DNA of 64,000 bases from Promethearchaeota archaeon (GCA_019058245.1 JAHPZJ010000030.1:155294-219293); one strand, 5' to 3'; shown: positions 2,404 to 47,800, counted from the stretch's first letter. The notes: a model not told the origin generated them from the sequence alone. Made by a program: numbers and translations.

Positions 2404-3078
2404 TCATAATTTTAATTTGGCACCAATTCCGTTATACATAAGATAACCCCAAAGTATTACTGAAACAGAAAGAATACTAATTAATATTCTAAAATTATAA
2501 TCTTTTACCGGATCCAAGAGATTATATACACACAACGAATAAAAAATATAAGCCACTCCTAAAAAACCCACTAAATGATATTTCCACTTTTTTTTTAATG
2601 CACTTGATTCGAACTGAAAATAGATTTTAAAATTTGTATAAATAACTGGAATATTTGTAAAACAGCTTATTACTGTAATTACATACATAAAAAAAATCAA
2701 ACCCCATTTAGGTGCTCCATTAATTATTTGAATTCCCAAAAATGGTTCTAATGAATTATCAAGAATTTCTCCTAGCAGAACTAGTATTATCATACCTGCT
2801 AATAACACAGTTCCATATAGTAAAATAAATTTCAATTGTCGTTTAACAGAATAAACGAGAGTTGATTCTAGTATTATCATATTTACAATAAGAAGAAAAA
2901 TTGGACCTAAAAAAAAAAAGTAATTAGTCAAGAAATTTAGAATTAAAATTGCTAATCTATTACTTATACCAGCATATACCATATTTAAAACAAAACCAAT
3001 TGAATAACAAATAAAAAATCCACTAGCAACAATATTTAGCCGTTGTCTATTTCTTTTTAGAATTTTATAAGCTATCAT
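2404..3078 (-). CDS. hypothetical polytopic membrane protein (about 7 hydrophobic segments)
   Basis: 224-aa ORF, hydrophobic almost throughout. The frame stays open and hydrophobic for about 34 codons upstream of the ATG without a canonical start, so the true start is uncertain. Confidence 0.5.
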   Translation of the reverse strand: MIAYKILKRNRQRLNIVASGFFICYSIGFVLNMVYAGISNRLAILILNFLTNYFFFLGPIFLLIVNMIILESTLVYSVKRQLKFILLYGTVLLAGMIILVLLGEILDNSLEPFLGIQIINGAPKWGLIFFMYVITVISCFTNIPVIYTNFKIYFQFESSALKKKWKYHLVGFLGVAYIFYSLCVYNLLDPVKDYNFRILISILSVSVILWGYLMYNGIGAKLKL

Positions 3079-3378
3079 TGAAAAATAGACAAATGAAATA
3101 GTAAAAACTATATAAATTATTATAGTTCTTGTAAGATCAATCTGAAAAAATACTATTATGTTGCACCAAATATTTGTTAATTAGTTATTTATTTTAGAAT
3201 TCTTTTTTCGTCTATAAATAAATTTCTTATTAATTTATTACAAATAATTATTTGACAATAATGTTATGATAAAAAAATGGCTCTGTTTTCAAAATAATTA
3301 AATTAACTAAATATAAATTCTCTTTTACTTTATAAAAATTAGAGAAAATTAATTAGTATTTAAAAAGCAAAACTAATT

Positions 3379-32467: not shown

Positions 32468-33301
32468 CTAACCAAATCTTCCAGTTATATAATTTTCTGT
32501 TAATTGATTGTTTGGATTTTCGAAAATTTGCTCAGTATTTCCAAATTCTATCAATTTTCCTAAATACATAAAACCTGTATAATCACTGATTCTTGCTGCT
32601 TGTTGCATATTATGAGTTACAATTATCATTGTCCATTGTTTCTTCAACTCAAGTATTAATTCTTCTATCTTTTGTGTTGCGATTGGATCAAGTGAAGCAG
32701 TTGGTTCGTCCATTAAAAGAATTTCAGGTTCAACTGCTAAAGCTCTTGCGATACATAATCTTTGTTGCTGACCTCCTGATAATCCCATCGCAGATTCATC
32801 TAATCTATCCCGAACCTCATCCCATAAGACGGCTCTCCTAAGGTTTTTCTCTGTAATTTCAGTTAAGATTTTATCGTCAATGATTTTATGAATTTTTGGA
32901 CCATATGTAATATTATCATATACAGACATTGGAAACGGATTAGGTTTTTGAAAGATCATTCCGATTTTTTTCCTATTCAACCTTATGTCTGCATTTTTCG
33001 AATATAGATTCTCTCCTTGAAATAAGACTTCACCCTCAATTCTGCATCCCTCAATTACATCATTCATGCGATTTAGGCAACGTAGTAAGGTACTTTTTCC
33101 GCATCCCGATGGTCCAATGATTGCTGTAACTTCATTCCGTTTGAATTTCATATTTATATCCATTAAGGCTTGAGATTCTTCATACCATAGATTCAAATTT
33201 CTGCATTCAATTACAGTATCATCTTGGTACATATTTGAATCATTTAAATTGTTCTTGTGTTCAATTTCTAACTTATTTTTATTTTTACTTTTAAAGACCA
33301 A
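32468..33301 (-). CDS. pstB: phosphate ABC transporter ATP-binding protein PstB
   Basis: [52 protein letters not shown] and [12 protein letters not shown] form the classic PstB pattern. Confidence 0.9.
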
Positions 33302-33307
33302 AACAAA

Positions 33308-35443
33308 TCACCATTGTTTTCTTTTTTCATATCTAGATCTTATAACAAATGCTACTCCATATAATATTAATACTAGTAATAATAATGTCAAGGCTGTACC
33401 AGCAGCTTCTTCTACAGAGAATAATGCTTCAGTGAGTAATCTATATAAATGGTAAGTTAGAGCCATTACTGGTTGAAAAATAGACAAGGTAATAATATAT
33501 CTAGAAGTTGTTCTAACAGCCGTAAACATAATTGGAGCCGTTTCTCCTGCACTTCTTCCCATTCCTAAGACGGCACCTGTAACAATTCCTGGTAATGCAG
33601 CAGGTAATACAATTTTACTTATTCCCTGCCATTTACTTGATCCTAAAGCTAAACTTCCTTCTCTAAACGACGGGGGAATTGCTTTAACTGCTTCTTCTGT
33701 AGTTCTTATTATTGTAGGAAGAATCATTAGACCTAAAGTTAACATTCCTGCTATTAGTGACTTTTGTAGTCCAAAAACTACTAGAAAGAGCACAACTCCA
33801 AATAAAGCAAATACTATTGAAGGGGTACCATTTAAATTATCAATTCCAGAACGTATAATTTTTGTAACTTTGTTATCCCTTGCATATTCAGAAAGATAAA
33901 TCCCAGCACACATACCAAGGGGTAAAGCAAAAGCAATAGATCCTAAGGTAAGTTGAATAGTACCTGTGATTGCTGGGAGTATTCCTCCTTCCATTGAACT
34001 AGCCGTAAGAAAATTAGGTCGATATGAGTCTTCCATTCCAGGAATTCTTATTAATACAGGAATACCGTTAGCGATAATATAATACAAGAGTGTTCCTACA
34101 GCAATTACAGCAAATGAAGAACATAAATATACAATTATAAACCAAAATTTTTCTTGACCAACAGTAGAAATTCTTTTAAATATAAGCCTAGTTCCAATAA
34201 TTAATGCAATTACAATAACAGTTAGAAATATTCCAATCCAAGTACTAAGTACCCATCCTGCAAATAACAAAATTACTCCATATAGTATCCATTTCTTTTG
34301 ATTTTTTGGTACTATAGTATACATTTGGAAAGTTAACCCTAATCCTATACAAATTATTGCTCCGACAACTTTAGAAATCATATCAGGTAATATGATAGCT
34401 ATAAAGACAGAGATAATTAAAGCTATTAGCAAAATTCTATATTTTAAAACTTGACTATATATCTTAGATTCTTTAAGATTCACATGTTTTTCTTTTACTT
34501 TTTCTCCTGTAAATTTTCTCTGAATTCTATTTAAAATAACATTTGCAATTGTATTTACCATCAATGTCATTATAAATAATGTTATTCCTAATGCAAAATA
34601 ACTCCTCCATTCTATGCTACCAGTCTCAGTTGGTCCCAAACCTAATCCAATAGTTGAAGTAATTACCGCCACACATGAGAACATGTTTGTTAATGGTTCA
34701 GGGAAAACTTTACAATTACCGATTACTAACATCATTGCCATAGTTTCACCTAAAGCTCTACCGATACCTAAAACTAGGGCAGCTGTAATACCAGACATAC
34801 CTGCAGGTATCACTACCTTACGAATAGTTTGCCATTTTGTTGCTCCCATAGCATATGAAGCCTCTCTATAATAATCTGGAACTGCCCTGATTGAATCTTC
34901 ACAGACCGATACAATTGTAGGTAAAGCCATTATTGCTAATATTAAAGATCCTGATAACCATGTATTTCCATGATGTAAACCAAATAAATCTCTTATTATT
35001 ATATTCAAGACCACAAGACCAAAGAAACCAAAGACAATTGAAGGAATACCAGCAAGAATTTCTATGGTAAATTTAAGAACTTTCCTAAGTTTTGGTGGAG
35101 CTAACTCAGCAAGAAATATGGCAGTCATTAATCCCAGGGGTAATGCGATGATTATAGCTCCGAAAGTAACTAAAAGAGTATCAACAATGATAGGTAAAGC
35201 ACCAAAATCTCCATGCGAAGGAAGCCAATTTGTCCCTAAAAGAAATTCTGTGAGAGATACTTCAGTAAAGAAAGGGCCTCCAATCACAAATAAAAAAATT
35301 ATTATTAAAAAAACAAAAATAGTTGCAATGGAGGCAATGAAAAATAGAATTATCTTGATAAGTTTATCTCTGTCTTTTTTTAAATAAGAATAATCTTCAT
35401 CCTCTATAAACACCTCATTTTCGAAAGTAGTTTCTGTGGACAT
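33308..35443 (-). CDS. pstC-pstA: fused PstC-PstA phosphate ABC permease with an extra hydrophobic linker region
   Basis: 711-aa ORF. The N half has the PstC-type GIGRALGETMAMMLV and the C half has the PstA-type GMGRSAGETAPIMFT. About 120 aa of additional TM segments lie between them (KYRILLIALIISVFIAIIL...IVYLCSSFAVIAVGTLLYYII). Confidence 0.85.
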   Translation of the reverse strand: MSTETTFENEVFIEDEDYSYLKKDRDKLIKIILFFIASIATIFVFLIIIFLFVIGGPFFTEVSLTEFLLGTNWLPSHGDFGALPIIVDTLLVTFGAIIIALPLGLMTAIFLAELAPPKLRKVLKFTIEILAGIPSIVFGFFGLVVLNIIIRDLFGLHHGNTWLSGSLILAIMALPTIVSVCEDSIRAVPDYYREASYAMGATKWQTIRKVVIPAGMSGITAALVLGIGRALGETMAMMLVIGNCKVFPEPLTNMFSCVAVITSTIGLGLGPTETGSIEWRSYFALGITLFIMTLMVNTIANVILNRIQRKFTGEKVKEKHVNLKESKIYSQVLKYRILLIALIISVFIAIILPDMISKVVGAIICIGLGLTFQMYTIVPKNQKKWILYGVILLFAGWVLSTWIGIFLTVIVIALIIGTRLIFKRISTVGQEKFWFIIVYLCSSFAVIAVGTLLYYIIANGIPVLIRIPGMEDSYRPNFLTASSMEGGILPAITGTIQLTLGSIAFALPLGMCAGIYLSEYARDNKVTKIIRSGIDNLNGTPSIVFALFGVVLFLVVFGLQKSLIAGMLTLGLMILPTIIRTTEEAVKAIPPSFREGSLALGSSKWQGISKIVLPAALPGIVTGAVLGMGRSAGETAPIMFTAVRTTSRYIITLSIFQPVMALTYHLYRLLTEALFSVEEAAGTALTLLLLVLILYGVAFVIRSRYEKRKQW

Positions 35444-35519
35444 AGATTTGCGAAATTCTCATTTCTAGTATTTAATTTTTATAGAAGTGAAATTTAGACT
35501 TAATATATTGATAATCCTC

Positions 35520-35538
35520 ATAGAATATATTCGAATAT
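35520..35538. promoter_or_regulatory. ATAGAATATAT word overlapping two nested palindromes (GAATATATTC, ATATTCGAATAT) in the pstS/pstCA intergenic spacer
   Basis: Read directly: exact 11-mer at 35520-35530, 10-bp palindrome at 35523-35532 and 12-bp palindrome at 35527-35538. TCTATATAAAATATATAG follows. Confidence 0.3.
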
Positions 35539-35692
35539 TTACTCTATATAAAATATATAGTATTTTACAAATGGGACAAAATATCTATTTAGTGATTTAT
35601 AGAATTAAGCCTAAATTGTGTAAAAAACAAATTATCTAAAAAAAATAATAAAAAAAATAAAGAATTAAGACCTTCTTATTTAAAATGCGATT

Positions 35693-36592
35693 TTATTTCC
35701 AAATTCGGATAAACCCTTCGGCTGCTACTTCTGCTTGTCCATGTGGACCATAAACAAAATCGATAAAAGCTTTAACCCATCCAGAAGCTGGTCCATTTGT
35801 GGTCAGATGTAGAGATCTTGAAATTGGATAAGAACCATCCAATATAGTAGTTTCACTAGATGCAACTCCATTTATAGGAACTGCTATTACACTAGAATCA
35901 ACATAACCTAACCCACAATATCCAAAACCATATTGATTTGCCGCAACAGTTGTGACCATAACAATATTAGAAGCTACTTCTGTAAATCCAATAACTGAAC
36001 TTTCATATCCAGCATCATCTCCTAATTCTACATCAGTATCAGATAAAACTAATTCTTCAAATGTTGCTCTTGTTCCAGAACCATCAGCTCGGGTATGAAC
36101 ATCAATTGTCTCAGATGATAAAGAAACATCAATATCATTCCATGTATCATAAGTACCATTGTAGATTAAAAAGACCTGTTGCATAGTAAGACCATTTGTT
36201 TGTAACCATAGAGCATCTGGATTACTAGCGTCTATAATCACTGCAATACCATCTTTCGCAAACTTATAATCTGTTAAATCATTACCTGCAGTTGTATTTT
36301 CGCTCGGTTTTATATTACGGGATGACATACCAATGTCATTTTGCCCGTCAATTGTGTCAGAGATACCATCTCCAGATCCTGTACCTGAAACAGAAATATC
36401 AACATTAGAATTTATCTCCATAAAATCGGCAGCACATGCAGTTATTATAGGCTCACATGTAGTGGAACCCGTGATAATGATCGATGATGTTCCTGCTCCA
36501 GAAGGAGTGACAAGGCTAGTAACTCCCCAACCGACGAAAAACATGGCAATCATACCAACAACAGCAATAATCCATATACCATTTTTTTCCAT
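35693..36592 (-). CDS. pstS: phosphate-binding protein PstS, membrane-anchored
   Basis: 299-aa ORF with an N-terminal TM anchor. ITGSTTCEPI, SGTGSGDGI and ADGSGTRATFEE are PstS-family phosphate-binding motifs. It is the first gene of the minus-strand pst operon. Confidence 0.85.
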   Translation of the reverse strand: MEKNGIWIIAVVGMIAMFFVGWGVTSLVTPSGAGTSSIIITGSTTCEPIITACAADFMEINSNVDISVSGTGSGDGISDTIDGQNDIGMSSRNIKPSENTTAGNDLTDYKFAKDGIAVIIDASNPDALWLQTNGLTMQQVFLIYNGTYDTWNDIDVSLSSETIDVHTRADGSGTRATFEELVLSDTDVELGDDAGYESSVIGFTEVASNIVMVTTVAANQYGFGYCGLGYVDSSVIAVPINGVASSETTILDGSYPISRSLHLTTNGPASGWVKAFIDFVYGPHGQAEVAAEGFIRIWK

Positions 36593-36701
36593 TTAATTTC
36601 ACAAATTTTTATTTAAAGACTTTTTTTTTAAATTGTTTAATTAGAGGTATTACTGGGAAAATATAAGAAATCACGACATAGATTATGTAGCATTATTTAC
36701 C

Positions 36702-36715
36702 CTATATATTCTATA
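36702..36715 (-). promoter_or_regulatory. 14-mer TATAGAATATATAG (minus strand), 109 nt upstream of the pstS start
   Basis: The plus strand reads CTATATATTCTATA. It is an exact inverted copy of the 14-mer at 36880-36893. Confidence 0.35.
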
Positions 36716-36879
36716 GAGAAATTCTTTATTTGGAATCTTATTCTCGACAAATAATTATTATGAGATTAATAACCATTTTAGTCTAAATCAAAAATTCTAA
36801 CTATATAGATTAAGAGAAATACAATTTTACTTTTTTGTCAATCTTTCTACTAATTAATAAAACATAAATATAGATATAA

Positions 36880-36893
36880 TATAGAATATATAG
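36880..36893 (+). promoter_or_regulatory. 14-mer TATAGAATATATAG (plus strand), 111 nt upstream of the AbrB-PhoU start
   Basis: It is an exact copy in mirror arrangement with 36702-36715. Additional TATATAG-like words lie at 36895-36901 and 36972-36979; the latter, about 30 nt before the ATG, is a likely TATA box. Confidence 0.35.
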
Positions 36894-37004
36894 AGTATAT
36901 AGTTGAAATATAAAATTGATTAATTATTTATTCTATATAATTATTTTGCAGAAATAAAGACATTTATTAATCTATATAGATAAATTAAGAGATAAGGGAA
37001 ATTT

Positions 37005-38009
37005 ATGTCATTTCATATAGAAACAAGAAAAGTACAAAAAACAGGAGGATCTTCCTATATTATATCTCTACCTAAAGTATGGATTGACAAACATGGGGTA
37101 GAAAAAAATGATACTTTAGGAATATTATCACAACCAGATGGAAATTTGTTGATAACTCCTCAGATTGAAAATGAAAAAGGTATTAAGACAAAAGAGATCG
37201 TTGTTGATGATTATAAGGATGAAAATTTTTTATTCCGGGTATTAATTGGAGCATATATTATGGGATTTTCTAGAATTGTATTAAAATCTAGTAAGAAATT
37301 TGAACCTTTAATGAGAGATACTATAACCAATTTCACTCAAATCGCAATAGGGCCAGAAATTATTGAAGAATCTAATAATTTCATTATGATTAAAGATTTA
37401 CTAAATCCTAAAGAAATGCCTTTTGAAAAAACAATAAAAAGAATGTATATTCTTGTACAGGATATGCATGAGGATGCAATCGATGCTCTAGAAACAGGGA
37501 AAAGCGAATTGGCTGAAGAAGTAATCAAAAGAGACGATGATGTTGACAGATTACATTGGTTGATTAGTCGTCAATCCCATATTGTATTGAGAGATATAAT
37601 TCTTTGCCAGAAAATGGGGATAACTTTAGAACAAGCGAGTCATTATCAACAAATGAGTAGATTCCTTGAAAGAATTGGGGATCATGCTTCAAAGATAGCT
37701 AAAAATGTCTTAATTCTTTTAAAACAAAAAATTGATGATAAGTTAAAGGATGAACTAAAAGAAGTAAGTAAATTGTCACTAGATTTATTGAATAAAAGTC
37801 TTGATGCTTGGCTTCAGAAAAGTATTAGTTTAGCGAATGAAAATATTGAAGAGATAAAAATATTAATCTCAATCACAGAGAAGATAAGTCTTAATACAAA
37901 TGTAAATGTGCAAGTTTCAATGGCGATAGGATATATTATTGAAAGTATAAGAAGAACGGCAGAATACTCTGGAGATATTTCTGAAATAATAATTAATAAT
38001 CTAGTATAA
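37005..38009 (+). CDS. AbrB/SpoVT-domain plus PhoU-domain transcriptional regulator (archaeal phosphate uptake regulator type)
   Basis: 334-aa ORF. The N-terminal swapped-hairpin motif is VQKTGGSSYIISLPKVWIDKHGVEKNDTLGI. PhoU repeats follow (DDDVDRLHWLI, SRFLERIGDHASKIAKN). It is divergent from pstS. Confidence 0.8.
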   Translation: MSFHIETRKVQKTGGSSYIISLPKVWIDKHGVEKNDTLGILSQPDGNLLITPQIENEKGIKTKEIVVDDYKDENFLFRVLIGAYIMGFSRIVLKSSKKFEPLMRDTITNFTQIAIGPEIIEESNNFIMIKDLLNPKEMPFEKTIKRMYILVQDMHEDAIDALETGKSELAEEVIKRDDDVDRLHWLISRQSHIVLRDIILCQKMGITLEQASHYQQMSRFLERIGDHASKIAKNVLILLKQKIDDKLKDELKEVSKLSLDLLNKSLDAWLQKSISLANENIEEIKILISITEKISLNTNVNVQVSMAIGYIIESIRRTAEYSGDISEIIINNLV

Positions 38010-41843: not shown

Positions 41844-44800
41844 ATGAACTCCGAAAATAAAAATTATTCACAAGAAAAAATTAAAAAGGCTACGGAATTT
41901 CTTCAGAAGTCATGGTGGTTTTGTTTTTACTTAGTTATTGCTCCATTGATTATTGCTTTTTTAATAATAGTTATTTTTATTCAATCTGGAGTAAATATTT
42001 ATATCTCATTAGCATTTTCTGTTTTAAGTTTTATTTTTACACTACTTTTCTTTTTTAAAGTATATGATAAATACAGAAGAAAGCCATTTTTTCTAAATAA
42101 AGAGAATAACCCTACAGCCAGAATTCATAGTTTGTTCTTAATTTCTATATTTTCTTTGATAATAACACCAATATTTTACTTAATTTCACTTATGAATATC
42201 CCATTTACTTTACTTCCTCTAATTAGTTATGCTATTCTTTATAATATCATCTATTATTATTATTATCTTCAACCATTAGATTATTTCAACTTAGAAGAGA
42301 AGGAGTTTAAACATACTGAGAATATCAAGTTAATGTTTATACAACCGTATAACTTTATAATATTTCTTAATTATTTAATCCATATCATTTTCTTAGGAAT
42401 TACAGCATCTACAGAATTTTCTTGGCTTTTCAGTTTAATTTCAGATATAGCAGTCTATATACTCACTTTAGTATCAACTAAAGATCAAATTAGGAAGATT
42501 AAGGAACTTATTGCTGAGAATAAGTCAATTGTAAAAGATTTAATTGTTTTTAAAAAGAAATTTGTAGTTTGTATAGTTAATCTTCTTTTTATCTTATTAA
42601 TTCAAATGCCTTTTGTCAGTATCATTATGTTCAGTCTTAGAGGTGTTCTATATTCAAGTTTAGAACTTATAAGTTATGCATTTTTAACAGTAATTTTCAT
42701 CTTGTTCTATTTTAAATCTAGGTACTATATTAGTGTGTACTATAACACAAGACTTAAATTGTATATAGTATCTGATAATATCAATATTTCAAAAGAAAGT
42801 ACGTTTATAGAATATTTCAAGTATCAAAAACATAATTCTTATTTATCCGGAGTGTTAATTCTATTAATTACTATATTCTCTTTTTTAATTGAAATTCCTC
42901 TTTTAAATGTAATTATTCTTCCTTTCATTTTTATTCTTCTTTATTATGAACAAAAATCAGATCTCTGTCCTAAAAAATATAGCAGATTTGTAGCTTTATT
43001 AAATTCAATTTCAATATTGGCTTCTATCGCTTTTGGTTTAATACCATTGATATCTGAGATGCCCTTATTAAACTTTTTAATTTTTTGTCTTTCATTGTAT
43101 TTTGTATTACAAATTTTTGCTAGATATAAATATTTCATTAAGGATGATATTCTTTTATACCAAAATCTACTTGCTATAGCAAGTTTTATATTATTATTTT
43201 ACTCATTCTTTCCGATAGCTATTATCGAATATACAACCTTTACATCAAACCCAATAATAATTCTTATTTCAAATATACTTTTACATTCATTGATTATTTT
43301 AGTAACCTTCTTAATTTCATTATATATTCTAGGGGTTCGATATTTTTATGCTAAGACCCCGAAATCATTTAAGACCTATATTATCATAATAAGTTTTTTA
43401 ATTGAACTTGTTATTTTTGCACTCATCAATTTTAGGAACTTTTTAGTATTGGGATTTATCAATTTTTTATATTCACTTTGCATCTCATCAATTTTATTCC
43501 CAATTGTTTTCATAGTTTTCCTTTTTGTAAATTATAGTCTAAATGCATTCAAATTAGAATATTTCTTAACCTTATGTTATTATATTTTTTGGATTTTTAT
43601 TGTTGATTTCTTCATTTCTCTGCTGATTATCTCTTTACTCAATATTTACATCATTGTTCTAATATTAGATTGTTTAATTTCATCCATTTTTTATTATTTT
43701 ATATTGAAATTTGGTATGGAATTAGAAAAAATAAATGAATCCAAATTTAATACAAATAATAAAATCAATTCCTATTTAATTGGTATTGAGCTTTTATCAT
43801 TATTTTTTACTATTTTTTTTATAGCTTTTCAATCTATCTCCTTAGCAGAAAATTTAATCTATTCATTATATTTATCATTACTAATCGTCGGTGGATTAGT
43901 CAATCTATTTTCAAAAATAGAAATTTTTTCGGAAGACCTCATTCTTAGAATAAATGCATTTATTCTATTATATAGCTCATTAATAGCTTTTTACTTCATT
44001 TTATTACTTACTTTTAATACAACTTATGTTTATATAGTTCCTCTACTGGTCTTTTCTACAATTTTTTACTTACCGCTTTTATTTTTGAAGAAGAAAAGCA
44101 TATTCAAAAACTTTATATCTAAGTTATTAAAAGTAAATAGTCTGCTATTTTCAGCAACATTATCCTTAATTCCCATTATTATAGGTTTGGAAATGTTCAA
44201 TTTAGGATTATATTTTGATTTAATTTTTTTAATATTTTCTGTAATCAATTTTAGCTTATATATTGTATTCGCTCTTCTTGGTATTTACTATTTCTTATTG
44301 AAGAAAATCAAGGTTGATGAAAATCGAGTTAATCTGATTCTTAAATTACATATATTAATAGCAGTAATTATTGGAATTACAACGATATTTTATTATCCAT
44401 TTTTTCTATTAACCGGGACATTCTATTGCATAGTATTACCATTGATTTTTATGTTCTGCTTCTTTTATATACCTCTTTTTTACTCTTACAAGAAACAGTT
44501 GTTTAATGTTAAACTAGTTAAATTAGAAATAGTTTTAATTACTATAGCTTTAACAGGTTTATTTACTTCAATACCTTCAATAGTTAGTTTAGATTTAATA
44601 AATAAAAGTTTGATATTTTATTCTAAGGTTTTACCTGTAAATATTATAAACTTTTCCTTCTACATTTTCTTTATTTTTTTATTAATTCTTAGTAGTCTAT
44701 TTAAAAAATTAGAATTAAAAAGCAAATTTATTTTAAATTTAGGTAGATTACAATTCTTTACCATATTTTGTATTTCTATTACTACACTATTTTTCTACCC

Positions 44801-47800
44801 ATTTTCATTGTTAAGTGGATTTTTTTATAAAATCCTTATTTCTTTCATTGCTTTATTGTCTTCTTGGTTTTTTATTTTCTATTATGCTTATAGAAAAGAA
44901 TATTTCAATCTAGTATTAGTAAGACTATTAACAATCTATAATTTTACTGTATTATCGTGCTTAATTATTTCGTTACCATTTATAATTGGATTAGAAGTAT
45001 TTGGATTCGCAGCTAATTTCATCCTAATAATAACCCTAACACTATTAATTCTATTTGTTTTTCTTAATATTTTTGAGATTATCGCAAATAAAATTAAGTT
45101 AAAAGAAAGATATATAAAATATTCTAAATTGCTTAAACCAATTCTCTTTTTTCTATTATCATTATTTTTGTCTTATTATATATCTACGATTTTTATTATT
45201 AGACTTACACTAACTCCTATAACTTTTCTAGTGTTAAGTTGTAGCTTTTTAGTTTTTTTCTTATTAAGTATGTATACCCTGGAACTTACATTTTCCTATG
45301 ATCCCAAATTATTGACATTAAAAAAGTATAAAGATATTATCATTTATGGAATCATTCTTTCATTATCATCAATTTTTACTTTTTTAAGCATATCAACAAA
45401 TATTCTTTCATCTTTTTTTCTAACTTCAATAATATTTAATTCATCTATTATAATTGGTGTTTTTACTTCATTATTTCTTTTATTTTTGATTCTGGGTGAC
45501 AATTTAATAGAATTGAAATTACCGCAGGTAAAAATAATCTGCGAATTAATTGCATGGGTAATTATAAAGGTAATATTATGCATTTTAACATTTTTTCTTA
45601 TTGACGTTTTTGCGTATCAATTCTTTATTGTAAATAAAATATTGCTAGTTTCATTAATTTTTACCGTTCTTACACCCTTAAGTCTTCATATATTAAAAAA
45701 TCTGAGTTTAGTATCATCTAAAAATAAATTACTAATAAAAAAACTAACTGAAATTGTATTTATTATTTCTTTATTAGGAATTTATACTGAAATTTCTTAC
45801 AATTTATTAAATTTAATACCACTATTTTATCAGAACTCACTTTTGAAAATAGTATCTCTCACTATTAATCTGATTTTAATTTTATATTATTTTTCTATAA
45901 AGTATAATAGAGTACTAGAAGAACATTCTTCACTCAATATTTACAGCTTTTATTTAACATCCTTCTTATTATTTTTCAGCTTTCTTTATTTTAATACTAA
46001 TCTTTCAGTTTTCCTTATATTACTATCGTATGTATTAATTCTTTCTAAGAGGAGCATAATTTCTATTTTTCGGTTTTTATCATATTTCTTACTAAGTTAT
46101 TATACTTTTACTACGATTCTAGTAATTATAAATTTCTATGGGGTTACAATAGCGTTTAATTTAACAAATCTAAGTATATTCATCAATCTATATCTCTTAA
46201 CGACAATTTTCGTTTTGGTTTTCTCTATTATTCTAAATATAAAGAAAAATAATACCCAAGAAAAATTTACATTATATTCTCTAATTTCTATACTCTCTTA
46301 TGTTTCTCTCATGAACTTTACAAATATTTTATCAATTTATAACATTACAATTTCACTTTTCATATTCTTATTCTTTATGGGAATTTACTTTCATCATCAA
46401 AAAGATGAACGTTATAAATGGTTTATTAAGCCTTGTTTAATTTTGTTTATCTTTGACTTTATTAGCTTTCTATCATATTCATGGTTCTTTAATAATCAGA
46501 TTTATGATACTTACAATCCAATTTTAACTTTCACTCTTACTCTTAGTATAACAGGTTTTGGATTCGTTTTATTGTATAATGAGGCTCCAAGAAAATTTCG
46601 AAAGAAATTCTTCTATATTATACTAGCATCAATAGTTATTGCTTTTCCAATCTTTATCTATTTTTTAATGATTGCGTCTTTATCAATGCCATTATTATCT
46701 ATAGTTCCATTAATAGTCGCAATAGATTTTGGTGTTTTTCTTTTTTATCTTTGTATTGCAATATATCACTGGAGGATTTCATGGGCAATTTGGAAATCTG
46801 GATGGTATGTGTGGAATATTCTACCTTTTGTTAACTTCTTTATTATATATCAAAGTTTTACTGGAATTGATGTATTCACTGACTCATTGCAATTTGGATT
46901 AATTCAAGTAGAAGGTTCATTAATAATTTCAATGATAATATGTTCTTTATTTTTCTTGCCAGTATTGTATACAAAAATTAAAAAATATTTTTTTTATATA
47001 ATATTTATTATATGGGGTGAAAGTCTATTTTTACTCTATTGGGTTAACTCAAATTTATTTGTCAGTGATCTAGTATTAAGAAATTTATCTTTTGTTTTAT
47101 TTTCAGTTATACTATTAATGCCTTTATTCGCGGGATTTAAATATTGGAAAATGGTGTCGATATTTTGGCTTTTATTAACTATAATTAATAGTTTATTTTT
47201 ATTGGGCTATTTAGTTTCTATTGGGGTCAATTTAGAAATGGTAATTTCAATTGACATTTTAGTTTTTGGGTTATTTTTTATTGTTTATTCATTTTTTCCA
47301 AATATAAGATCCTATGGAGTTATATTAATAAGTGCCTATCTTATTACACTTTCAGGTATTTTCTCCACAGTTTTATTCATTTTTTATTTATTATTATTAG
47401 ATCCCATATTTTCTGTGAACATTAGTTTTATCATAGTTGGTTTAAGTCTTTTTTCCTCAAAATATTTAAAATTATCGAATAGAATTATAGATCATAGTCT
47501 CTCTTGGGTATTAATATTCAACTTAGCATGGTTAACTTTCAATACTTTCAATCTATTTCCAGGATTTGTTGTGTTTGCATTCTCTTTAGCACTAACTGTT
47601 TTTGGATTTTCATTTTTCATCTTTAATCACTACAAAATGAAAATGCCTATTAGAATTATAATTCCAAGTTCAATTATCACGATTGGGGCTTCTCTTTCAG
47701 TCACCTCTTTTATATCTTTAATTTTTAAAGCATCCCCCGGGATATTAATCTCTACGTTTTCTTCAGTATTTATAGTATTCTTATATTTTTTAATTAAAGA

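Follow-up and report, generated by a model that had tools for sequence, protein, structure and literature searches.

How a membrane protein of several thousand residues comes to be built, and whether repeated helix blocks account for its size, is the question raised by a gene at 41844..50444 (+ strand) of the window, i.e. the whole 64,000-nucleotide stretch of Promethearchaeota archaeon DNA analysed here. According to the ORF list and its translation, the gene encodes a giant protein of 2,866 aa. An earlier note on this DNA had placed at least four consecutive four-helix units at 43938-45533, correctly read in frame as aa 699-1230 of the 2,866-aa ORF, and had proposed that the entire chain grew from such a unit. 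Based on profile comparisons, structure prediction and analysis of relatives, we consider it highly probable that the region holds a tandem-duplicated array of three modules, which may form a length-tunable section of a membrane ribbon.

The giant protein and its family

The giant protein is membrane-embedded almost throughout, with roughly 86-90 predicted TM helices (a crude count gives ~86 TM segments), and Leu, Ile and Phe together account for 47% of its residues, at a gene G+C content of 22%. K/R-rich loops follow a ~64-aa hairpin period along the entire chain, the computed basic-loop periods being 64-69 aa and 133-134 aa. The homologues (n=74) range from 1,662 to 3,754 aa, the best matches align across most of the length, and those named belong to Lokiarchaeia, Promethearchaeota, Hodarchaeota or Thorarchaeota. 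Since the bias filter of phmmer discarded almost all family matches under default filters, the option --nobias was used. A search with the core profile among 1.84 billion representatives returned 53 clusters, all of them giant proteins or their fragments, and every named or located member stems from Promethearchaeota or another Asgard MAG; as far as its members are named or located, the family occurs only in Asgard archaea.

The most conserved part of the family lies outside the array, at aa ~1450-1960 (46191..47723, + strand, from the conservation profile), where all 73 of 73 homologues align and a Trp-rich motif is found (Y1641-x-W-xx-SW-x-IW-xx-GW-xx-W-xxx-P-xx-N1664). The AlphaFold2 (AF2) model of this core comprises 19 helices at a pLDDT of 76, and no match to a PDB fold was found for it. 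Scanned against Pfam with E-values of up to 1 admitted, the complete giant protein gave only a chance sub-threshold match to ATG7_N (11.5 bits), the NCBIfam search gave none, scans of six divergent relatives against Pfam returned nothing besides a zinc-ribbon insert in P0070, and no PDB chain was matched in sequence by phmmer with the whole protein or by hmmsearch with the module profile. The family is hence without a recognisable domain or fold relative among the Pfam, NCBIfam, PDB and Foldseek matches listed, and literature searches on giant multi-pass Asgard proteins and on Piezo brought up no description of it.

In the window, the genes around the giant gene encode Pst/PhoU, MFS and aminotransferase proteins, and those near the genes of relatives a uronate isomerase, an FG-GAP protein or an ABC transporter. 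The neighbourhoods differ between relatives, with no informative conserved neighbours, and no functional link emerged from them.

Three homologous modules

Three segments on the + strand make up the array: U1, of type A, is the first (aa 702-829, 43947..44330), followed by U2, of type B (aa 836-963, 44349..44732), and by U3, of type B/C, as the last (aa 970-1091, 44751..45116), with scores of 105, 113 and 99 bits, respectively, against an iterated module HMM. They are arranged head-to-tail, successive units being 134-135 aa apart. In Smith-Waterman comparisons, U2 and U3 score 191 (z=16), U1 and U2 155 (z=9.5), and U1 and U3 112 (z=6.1), values reached by none of 300 shuffles; when each unit is compared with 57 further real 134-aa windows taken from the giant protein itself, the best scores are 73-84. 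Of the 74 homologues, 72 contain matches to an HMM derived from U1-U3, 165 domains in total, whereas the reversed and the shuffled family sequences contain none. When hhalign window profiles are compared all against all, scores of 57-302 are obtained inside aa ~700-1095, with module E-values of 1e-31 to 1e-53, as opposed to a maximum of 26 for reversed profiles; against the module profile, U1 and U3 reach E-values of 9e-38 and 6e-38. A periodicity beyond that of shuffled TM sequence, as the earlier note anticipated, therefore holds for U1-U3 under the shuffle, reversed and within-protein controls. On sequence grounds, U1-U3 represent three head-to-tail homologous modules of ~134 residues each.

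The amino acid identity between the three is 24-34%. Near-identical nucleotide repeats, said earlier to be missing, are indeed absent: TRF finds no ~400-nt period, and 117 of 403 columns are invariant among the aligned unit DNAs. The array in the giant protein arose by tandem duplication of coding DNA, and the low amino acid identity together with the absence of a DNA repeat indicates that these duplications are old rather than recent, as had been suggested for this protein.

The fourth unit of the original proposal (U4, aa 1096-1230, 45129..45533, + strand), by contrast, is at background in every test, so that three of the 'at least four' units are verified. Its pairwise z-scores to U1-U3 are -0.1 to 2.5, with scores of 65, 82 and 65 that fall inside the null range or at its margin (maxima 73-84), and its hhalign score of 10.8-11.9 against the module profile equals that of the reversed-profile control. 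As the similarity is at background level, we reject U4 as a degenerate module copy; AF2, hhalign and Smith-Waterman together describe it as a constant four-helix segment adjoining the array, which resembles the module only topologically, in its four predicted helices. A segment of about this length stays between the anchors regardless of module number, and the lowest conservation in the giant protein is found here, at aa 1101-1250. The landmark motifs, reported as shared by all four units, follow the same division in part: they are exact in U2 (4/4) and U3 (3/4, the tail NKIKLK being relaxed relative to the KK-x-x-K pattern), U1 has only relaxed versions (the helix-3 motif SLIPIIIGLE plus a variant of the KK-x-x-K tail), and U4 has none.

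Module anatomy and predicted structure

The module consists of two TM helical hairpins, H1-H2 and H3-H4, with a short extra helix after the conserved Ile/Leu-Pro kink that ends H3. H1 carries an aromatic FYY stretch and H2 a nearly invariant proline (P733 is conserved); further landmarks are a G-T-x-Y turn, IPTxIxLE where H3 ends, a loop with L-G-xxx-D and, where H4 begins, N-x-(S/T)-L-Y. Lys/Arg-rich loops follow H2 and H4. Our confidence in this anatomy and in the duplication history, taken jointly, is high.

Prediction of U1-U4 with AF2 from a shallow input alignment of 16 sequences yielded a model (pLDDT 82.3, pTM 0.60) in which each unit has four long helices, 16 in all. In model residues, these are 2-24, 33-52, 57-76+78-88 and 95-123 in U1, 128-157, 166-186, 191-210+212-222 and 232-257 in U2 (pLDDT 85-93), 262-291, 298-320, 325-355 and 361-385 in U3, and 390-419, 427-454, 459-486 and 498-523 in U4. 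Foldseek returned no significant PDB fold match for either AF2 model (E at least 0.08; TM-scores 0.1-0.2); the matches listed for both are soluble helical-repeat (solenoid-like) proteins, all non-significant, and no Piezo chain is among the best 50 listed. The module contains no soluble domain and matches no transporter, channel or enzyme family, and nothing resembling a soluble cap domain can be seen in the sequence of the giant protein. By the positive-inside rule, both basic loops of the module should face the cytoplasm. A unit would thus start and end on the same side, allowing whole four-helix units to be gained or lost without inverting the remaining chain.

Copy-number variation among relatives

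Among relatives with a length of 2,400 aa or more, the HMM counts no module in 3, one in 19, two in 33, three in 14, four in 9 and six in 1, two being the commonest number; 76 of these 79 full-length relatives accordingly keep at least one module. The anchor-to-anchor length is quantised in steps of ~134 aa (about 280, 384-419, 532-538 or 634-682 aa), and in 4-unit relatives the units start at aa 702, 836, 970 and 1104, the type duplicated again being that of U2. HMM counts and anchor-to-anchor lengths agree, bearing out the expectation that relatives differ by integral numbers of modules. No module is detectable in the three most distant full-length relatives, from which it follows that the family can perform its core function without the array.

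Several lineages contain duplicates of recent origin: adjacent units are 66-78% identical in P0003, P0004, P0006, P0008 and P0011, 82% in P0030 and 73% in P0069. Lineage-specific duplicates with 51-82% identity occur in P0030, P0039 (arranged as (A-B)x3), P0069 and P0074, where the units have their nearest counterparts among their own paralogues within that protein. The arrays of P0003 and P0005 are unequal by one whole unit, yet the flanking units of the two are 95-96% identical. Judging from these sequences, the array is still dynamic across the family, with units gained or lost at least once between relatives that are nearly identical. At the same time, orthologues preserve the sequence of their modules (U1, for example, shows 49-63% identity across the P0001-P0016 group), which argues against neutral filler.

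A module-profile search of 5.8 billion proteins gave only two extra matches, both fragments of giant genes, and missed even the full-length family, probably through the bias filter; it weakly suggests that the module is absent outside the giant family.

Growth of the whole protein

A second internal repeat, identified with hhalign, consists of two ~250-aa copies at aa ~2173-2375 and ~2424-2623 (48360..49712, + strand). Windows 2171 and 2381 match with an E-value of 2e-6 (score 41), and windows 2241 and 2451 as well as 2241 and 2521 score 32-33, the controls reaching 26 at most. The offset of 248-254 aa recurs in most relatives, and recent extra copies are present in P0030, P0039 and P0074. This C-terminal repeat does not match the module profile. 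A ~179-aa repeat family represents an additional segmental duplication in the giant protein and its relatives. The chunked self-BLAST was run without composition correction and yields many weak chance matches, so only recurring offsets were used.

Could the whole protein nevertheless derive from one 4-TM unit, with the other copies, among them U4 and an upstream half-unit at aa ~655-700, diverged beyond recognition? The uniform ~64-aa period of basic-loop hairpins throughout the protein and the matching four-helix pattern of U4 would fit, as would a weak in-register hint upstream of U1 (aa 667-700 versus 930-963), a self-BLAST offset of ~128 starting near aa 651-666 in several relatives, and marginal module-profile matches at aa 361-405 and 2551-2636 (scores 25-26). 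However, none of these hints is significant, U0 (13.5) and U4 (11-12) scoring like the reversed controls, and the C-terminal ~250-aa repeat is unlike the module; we therefore regard this origin as unlikely. The upstream half-unit 'U0' (aa 636-700) is rejected as a candidate, as it aligns in register but its score of 13.5 is non-significant. Degenerate copies had been expected across the rest of the protein, but all other 140-aa windows remain at or near control level against the module profile, the best scores of 25.7 and 24.8 comparing with up to 19.7 for the reversed module in the same run and up to 26 for the all-versus-all reversed control. Serial 4-TM duplication thus describes the growth of the array region, where it still brings about change, and is unsupported for the protein as a whole. 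The sequence comparisons indicate that the giant protein grew by duplications, though not of one traceable single unit.

Proposed function of the array

As a candidate function, which we put forward tentatively, the array may serve as a length-tunable structural spacer. It would form a length-setting section within a long ribbon of TM hairpins, and the number of modules would adjust how long the giant protein is in the membrane plane, or how large its footprint, an effect that we liken to that of repeat number in soluble solenoids and of the nine 4-TM units in the Piezo blade. This reading follows from the module being without a soluble domain or family match, and from Foldseek matches that are solenoid-like only and non-significant. 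Ribbon-like rather than bundled packing, like the superposition of the units, is inferred from the DSSP strings and the kind of insignificant Foldseek matches.

Polar residues are conserved in the module (Asn in H3/H4 and Glu/Asp at the outer ends), and binding or transport would also fit them. Each module could accordingly be an autonomous functional unit, e.g. a lipid-, isoprenoid- or ion-binding bundle, with copies scaling capacity and not length. The Asn in H3, the N-x-S/T starting H4, the Glu/Asp at the H3 end and in the H3-H4 loop, and the conservation of modules between orthologues are compatible with such a role, but the module is not found stand-alone or in another family (within the bias-filter limits of the search of 5.8 billion proteins), has no similarity to a known 4-TM domain, transporter or channel, and is missing from the most distant relatives; we give this possibility a low probability.

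Similarly doubtful is that the array is tolerated filler, its units lacking an individual role and coming and going by replication slippage or unequal recombination, in a gene that is repetitive and very AT-rich. Copy number does vary widely, even among close relatives, conservation in the protein is lowest in the adjoining U4 region, and the ~179- and ~250-aa segmental duplications lie elsewhere in the gene. On the other hand, the retention of at least one module in nearly all full-length relatives, the conservation of motifs and prolines down to ~30% overall identity, and the survival of old units with an unbroken reading frame and an unchanged helix pattern point to purifying selection. That the U1-U3 similarity stems from convergence of hydrophobic helices or from their biased composition, instead of common descent, might be suspected from the Leu/Ile/Phe and A+T content, from the HMMER bias filter removing most family matches and from many weak off-diagonal BLAST matches without composition correction. 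This origin is refuted, and retains a negligible probability, as neither composition-preserving shuffles nor reversed sequences or profiles come near the observed scores, the 57 other real TM windows score at most 84 versus 112-191 between units, and the module alignments are collinear over ~125 columns with non-hydrophobic landmarks common to the units.

The length-tunable spacer may be extended to a bolder reading, which we consider improbable: a single polypeptide of ~44 TM hairpins would constitute an Asgard-only membrane 'solenoid' ribbon, a new architectural class that would shape or stiffen the membrane or sense its curvature, for instance at the long protrusions of Lokiarchaeia cells. 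Its in-plane length would be adjusted evolutionarily by gain and deletion of four-helix modules, and it would be a functional analogue of the Piezo blade of independent origin.

To our knowledge, arrays in which sequence-recognisable modules vary in number are well known from soluble and surface proteins but scarcely described for blocks of TM helices. The array illustrates a growth route for an extremely large polytopic protein, in whole even-numbered blocks that preserve topology, with module gain and loss still visible among living relatives. Natural 1-, 2-, 3-, 4- and 6-module versions offer an experimental handle on the role of the protein. Asgard archaea are the closest known relatives of eukaryotes, and if the giant protein scaffolds or senses membrane shape, it bears on how Asgard cells build complex morphology.

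Comparison with known systems

Little mutual sequence similarity is known among the transmembrane helical units (THUs) of Piezo channels. The comparison with Piezo, drawn earlier solely as an analogy, stands as such: both are very large polytopic proteins with head-to-tail four-helix TM units, an even helix number keeping the topology, and tandem four-helix units are present here in the AF2 model of U1-U4, with a 133-134-aa periodicity. Nevertheless, no sequence, profile or fold relationship was detected, as neither the Pfam and PDB-sequence searches nor the Foldseek matches listed contain Piezo. Piezo is eukaryotic and has a fixed set of nine units, whereas 0-6 sequence-homologous units vary between orthologues of the Asgard family, and no pore module, cap or beam of the Piezo kind was found in the giant protein. 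The blade of Piezo1 and Piezo2 comprises nine tandem 4-TM THUs in a 38-TM protomer (PMC12377734), the roughly 86-90 helices predicted here being more than twice that number.

MARVEL, tetraspanin, claudin/PMP22 and MS4A proteins share four TM helices with both ends in the cytoplasm, but have no Pfam match to the giant protein at E up to 1. We know of no tandem arrays of them in one polypeptide. Internal-repeat transporters and channels (4x6-TM voltage-gated Na/Ca channels, LeuT, MFS) are also polytopic and built by TM-block duplication; however, their copy number is fixed at 2 or 4 and their repeats are placed around a central pathway, often inverted, whereas the units of the array are parallel, open-ended in number and without a family match.

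Soluble alpha-solenoids (TPR, HEAT/ARM, designed helical repeats) are likewise duplicated tandem helical hairpins whose repeat number sets array length, and they are the best Foldseek matches listed for both AF2 models, a non-significant resemblance of kind given the TM-scores of 0.1-0.2. They are water-soluble with repeats of 34-50 residues, whereas the helices of the giant protein, ~20-31 residues long in the models, are hydrophobic and alternate across the membrane, with loops following the positive-inside rule.

Giant gene and its product

The whole repeat array resides in the product of the giant membrane-protein ORF (41844-50444, plus strand; 2,866 aa), a gene with a G+C content of ~22% compared to ~29% in the remainder of the window, and a protein in which Leu, Ile and Phe make up 47% of the residues. 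A crude count gives ~86 hydrophobic segments, and Lys/Arg-rich loops recur with a ~64-residue spacing along the entire chain, a period that corresponds to ~44 transmembrane hairpins and hence roughly 86-90 predicted TM helices. In other words, to judge from its sequence, the giant protein would be a nearly loop-less chain of transmembrane hairpins. No relative was found when all PDB chains were searched with the giant protein (phmmer) and with a profile of its module, the NCBIfam scan gave no match, and the Pfam scan yielded nothing beyond a sub-threshold chance match. Two antisense ORFs lie within the gene (47630-48016, 128 aa, and 49466-49801, 111 aa, both minus strand), both probably chance ORFs.

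Three related four-helix modules

For aa 699-1230 (43938-45533), an earlier note had claimed at least four related units sharing four landmark motifs. Three units, U1, U2 and U3 (aa 702-829, 836-963 and 970-1091), form a real repeat far above chance, and the number is three rather than four or more. Pairwise local alignments score 191 for U2-U3 (z=16), 155 for U1-U2 (z=9.5) and 112 for U1-U3 (z=6.1); across 300 composition-preserving shuffles no score came up to these, and a stricter within-protein null, drawn from 57 other real windows of 134 residues in the giant protein itself, has maxima of 73-84. As a substitute for HHrepID, orthologues were aligned for each 140-residue window and all non-overlapping window profiles compared by hhalign, with reversed profiles as control: windows inside aa ~700-1095 match each other with scores of 57-302 (E down to 2e-53), and the control never exceeds 26. 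An HMM of U1-U3 detects 165 domains in 72 of the 74 homologues and none in their reversed or shuffled sequences. Pure compositional convergence is excluded, the observed scores surpassing those of shuffles, reversed profiles and within-protein windows alike. Exact matches to the motifs, as worded in the note, occur in U2 and U3 but in no other unit. At the DNA level, no ~400-nt tandem repeat was found and the units differ strongly in nucleotide sequence, in agreement with the note's statement that near-identical nucleotide repeats are lacking.

The proposed fourth unit (U4, aa 1096-1230) fails every test. Its pairwise z is at most 2.5, its pairwise scores lie inside the within-protein null or just reach its edge, and its score against the module profile (10.8-11.9) is identical to the reversed control, so that it is not a detectable copy of the module. 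A candidate half-unit upstream (aa 636-700), which aligns in register to the module, was not significant.

Module anatomy and topology

An AlphaFold2 model of aa 699-1230, built from a 16-sequence alignment, comprises 16 long helices (mean pLDDT 82.3, pTM 0.60). U1 and U2 are modelled as helix, loop, helix, short loop, helix, a kink with an 11-residue helix, loop and helix; U3 and U4 as four long helices apiece. In a 35-unit alignment, the first helix (H1) carries an FYY stretch followed by a G-T-x-Y turn; H2 a nearly invariant proline (P733), with a Lys/Arg-rich loop after it; H3 IPTxIxLE at the kink and then an L-G-xxx-D loop; and H4 N-x-S/T-L-Y at its start and a second basic loop after its end. 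The N-x-S/T-L-Y stretch, present at the outer start of H4 in most modules of the alignment of module units (e.g. aa 801-806 and 935-940), may serve as a helix N-cap or as an N-glycosylation sequon.

According to the positive-inside rule, basic loops of membrane proteins are expected to be cytoplasmic. Both basic loops of the module would therefore face the cytoplasm, and each unit would begin and end inside the cell. Start and end on the same side would explain why only whole four-helix units are duplicated, or, elsewhere in the family, blocks of ~179 and ~250 residues, which probably represent six and eight helices, respectively.

Module number and history of the array

The 74 homologues span 1,662-3,754 aa, most full-length ones 2,500-3,750 aa. 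Between conserved flanking anchors, the stretch matching aa 699-1230 falls into discrete length classes (~280, 384-419, 532-538 and 634-682 residues), i.e. a constant 'U4' segment of ~135 residues to which one to four ~134-residue modules are added. An iterated module HMM, run with the bias filter off and without hits on reversed sequences, places unit starts 134-135 residues apart in multi-unit proteins and counts no module in 3 full-length relatives, one in 19, two in 33, three in 14, four in 9 and six in 1. Homologues hence differ by whole modules, so that the check proposed in the note, whether their lengths differ by integral numbers of modules, came out positive.

Typing of each homologue unit against U1, U2 and U3 reveals a widespread pair, with an A-type first and a B-type second unit; in the clade of the giant protein, U2 and U3, at 34% identity, are the products of an earlier split of the B unit. 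An additional U2 copy, 66-78% identical to its neighbour, is present in P0003, P0004, P0006, P0008 and P0011. Independent expansions occurred in P0030 (neighbouring units 82% identical), P0069 (73%), P0039 (the A-B pair three times) and P0074 (78%, with a 250-residue period), and in these four homologues the nearest kin of the units are paralogous units in the same protein. P0003, with four modules, and P0005, with three, differ by one middle unit and are 95-96% identical in their first and last modules; one whole module has thus been gained or lost very recently, by unequal recombination. Assemblies from different sources show the same architectures, so that assembly artefacts are an unlikely explanation.

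At one DNA locus (L007:1-7949), a gene related to the giant one is spread over four successive ORFs on the same strand (279, 155, 1,469 and 697 aa), the 155-aa ORF being one module; either the copy is frameshifted or interrupted, or errors in sequencing have produced this picture.

Remainder of the protein and conserved core

The note had supposed more degenerate copies over the rest of the giant protein, and growth by serial duplication of a single four-helix unit. No module is detectable elsewhere in the chain, the best profile scores (25.7 at aa 361-405 and 24.8 at aa 2551-2636) lying at the edge of the control. A second internal repeat of ~250 residues (48360-49712, plus strand; aa ~2173-2375 and ~2424-2623; hhalign E 2e-6, offset 248-254 aa) is unrelated to the 134-residue module; the same offset is found in most relatives too, and P0030, P0039 and P0074 carry recent extra copies, 66-72% identical. 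The giant protein did grow by internal duplication, of several different even-numbered helix blocks rather than of any one traceable 4-TM ancestor; the absence of the module elsewhere and the unrelated ~250-residue repeat speak against an origin of the entire chain from one unit.

A third repeat length, ~179 residues, is seen near the C-terminus of P0003-P0006 (aa ~2540-3130; recent, 52-67% identical) and, as an older duplicate, near the N-terminus of P0053, P0056 and P0059-P0063 (aa ~250-835). P0017, P0022, P0024-P0027 and P0036 have a ~246-residue duplication of an upstream segment together with U1.

Conservation is highest outside the module array, in a core at 46191-47723 (plus strand; aa ~1450-1960) rich in near-invariant Pro, Gly, Asn and aromatic residues and bearing a Trp-rich motif (46764-46835; Y-x-W-xx-SW-x-IW-xx-GW-xx-W-xxx-P-xx-N). 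Its AlphaFold2 model contains 19 helices (pLDDT 76), and a PDB fold search with it gave no match, an outcome of the same sort as for the module-array model. The protein's function may centre on this core. Among 1.84 billion representative proteins its profile finds 53, all giants of the same family or fragments thereof, the named members being Promethearchaeota. Likewise, all named members among the 74 homologues come from Asgard archaea, and all 12 species-representative genomes with close relatives are Asgard MAGs. Just one soluble domain could be recognised across the family, a zinc-ribbon (CxxC...CxxC) inserted in an N-terminal loop of the divergent member P0070 (aa 159-190), and it scores below the Pfam cut-off.

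Conservation of the gene neighbourhood does not extend past close relatives. Upstream in the window (~32468-38009) lies a minus-strand phosphate-uptake cluster, comprising a PstB-like ABC ATPase, a fused permease of 711 aa (33308-35443) and a periplasmic phosphate-binding protein, followed by a plus-strand MazE/AbrB-PhoU fusion (37005-38009); between this fusion and the giant gene lie genes for an MFS transporter and an LL-diaminopimelate aminotransferase.

Discussion

Based on these analyses, aa 702-1091 of the giant protein form an array of homologous four-helix membrane modules, placed head to tail, varying in number and kept under conservation, and we hold the array anatomy and evolutionary history described here to be very probably correct. 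What the array does is a far more tentative matter. Most likely among the readings considered, though with low confidence, is a spacer role: the array would be a structural part of a long ribbon of transmembrane hairpins, with the number of modules setting the ribbon's length or footprint. Specific evidence speaks against two other readings, i.e. that the modules are autonomous binding or transport units, and that the array is neutral filler. A protein search with the module profile returned no stand-alone or foreign copy, only broken giant-gene fragments, a negative weakened by the HMMER bias filter.

Internal repeats are a known phenomenon in proteins, and arrays of 4-TM units are already familiar from Piezo. 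To our knowledge, neither an array of sequence-recognisable TM modules ranging from 0 to 6 copies between orthologues, nor a host protein predicted to have roughly 86-90 TM helices, nor the restriction of such a protein to Asgard archaea has been described before, and our literature search found no description of the family. A Foldseek search of the module-array model against the PDB gave nothing with E <0.001; the matches listed, soluble helical-repeat proteins (TPR and designed repeats), reach TM-scores of 0.1-0.2 and include no Piezo chain. By sequence and profile searches, the giant protein did not qualify as a member of the Piezo family. Piezo has 38 TM helices, with a blade of nine 4-TM units (PMC12377734), so that the number predicted in the giant protein is more than twice as large. 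In kind, the module array would be analogous both to the Piezo blade and to soluble solenoid repeats.
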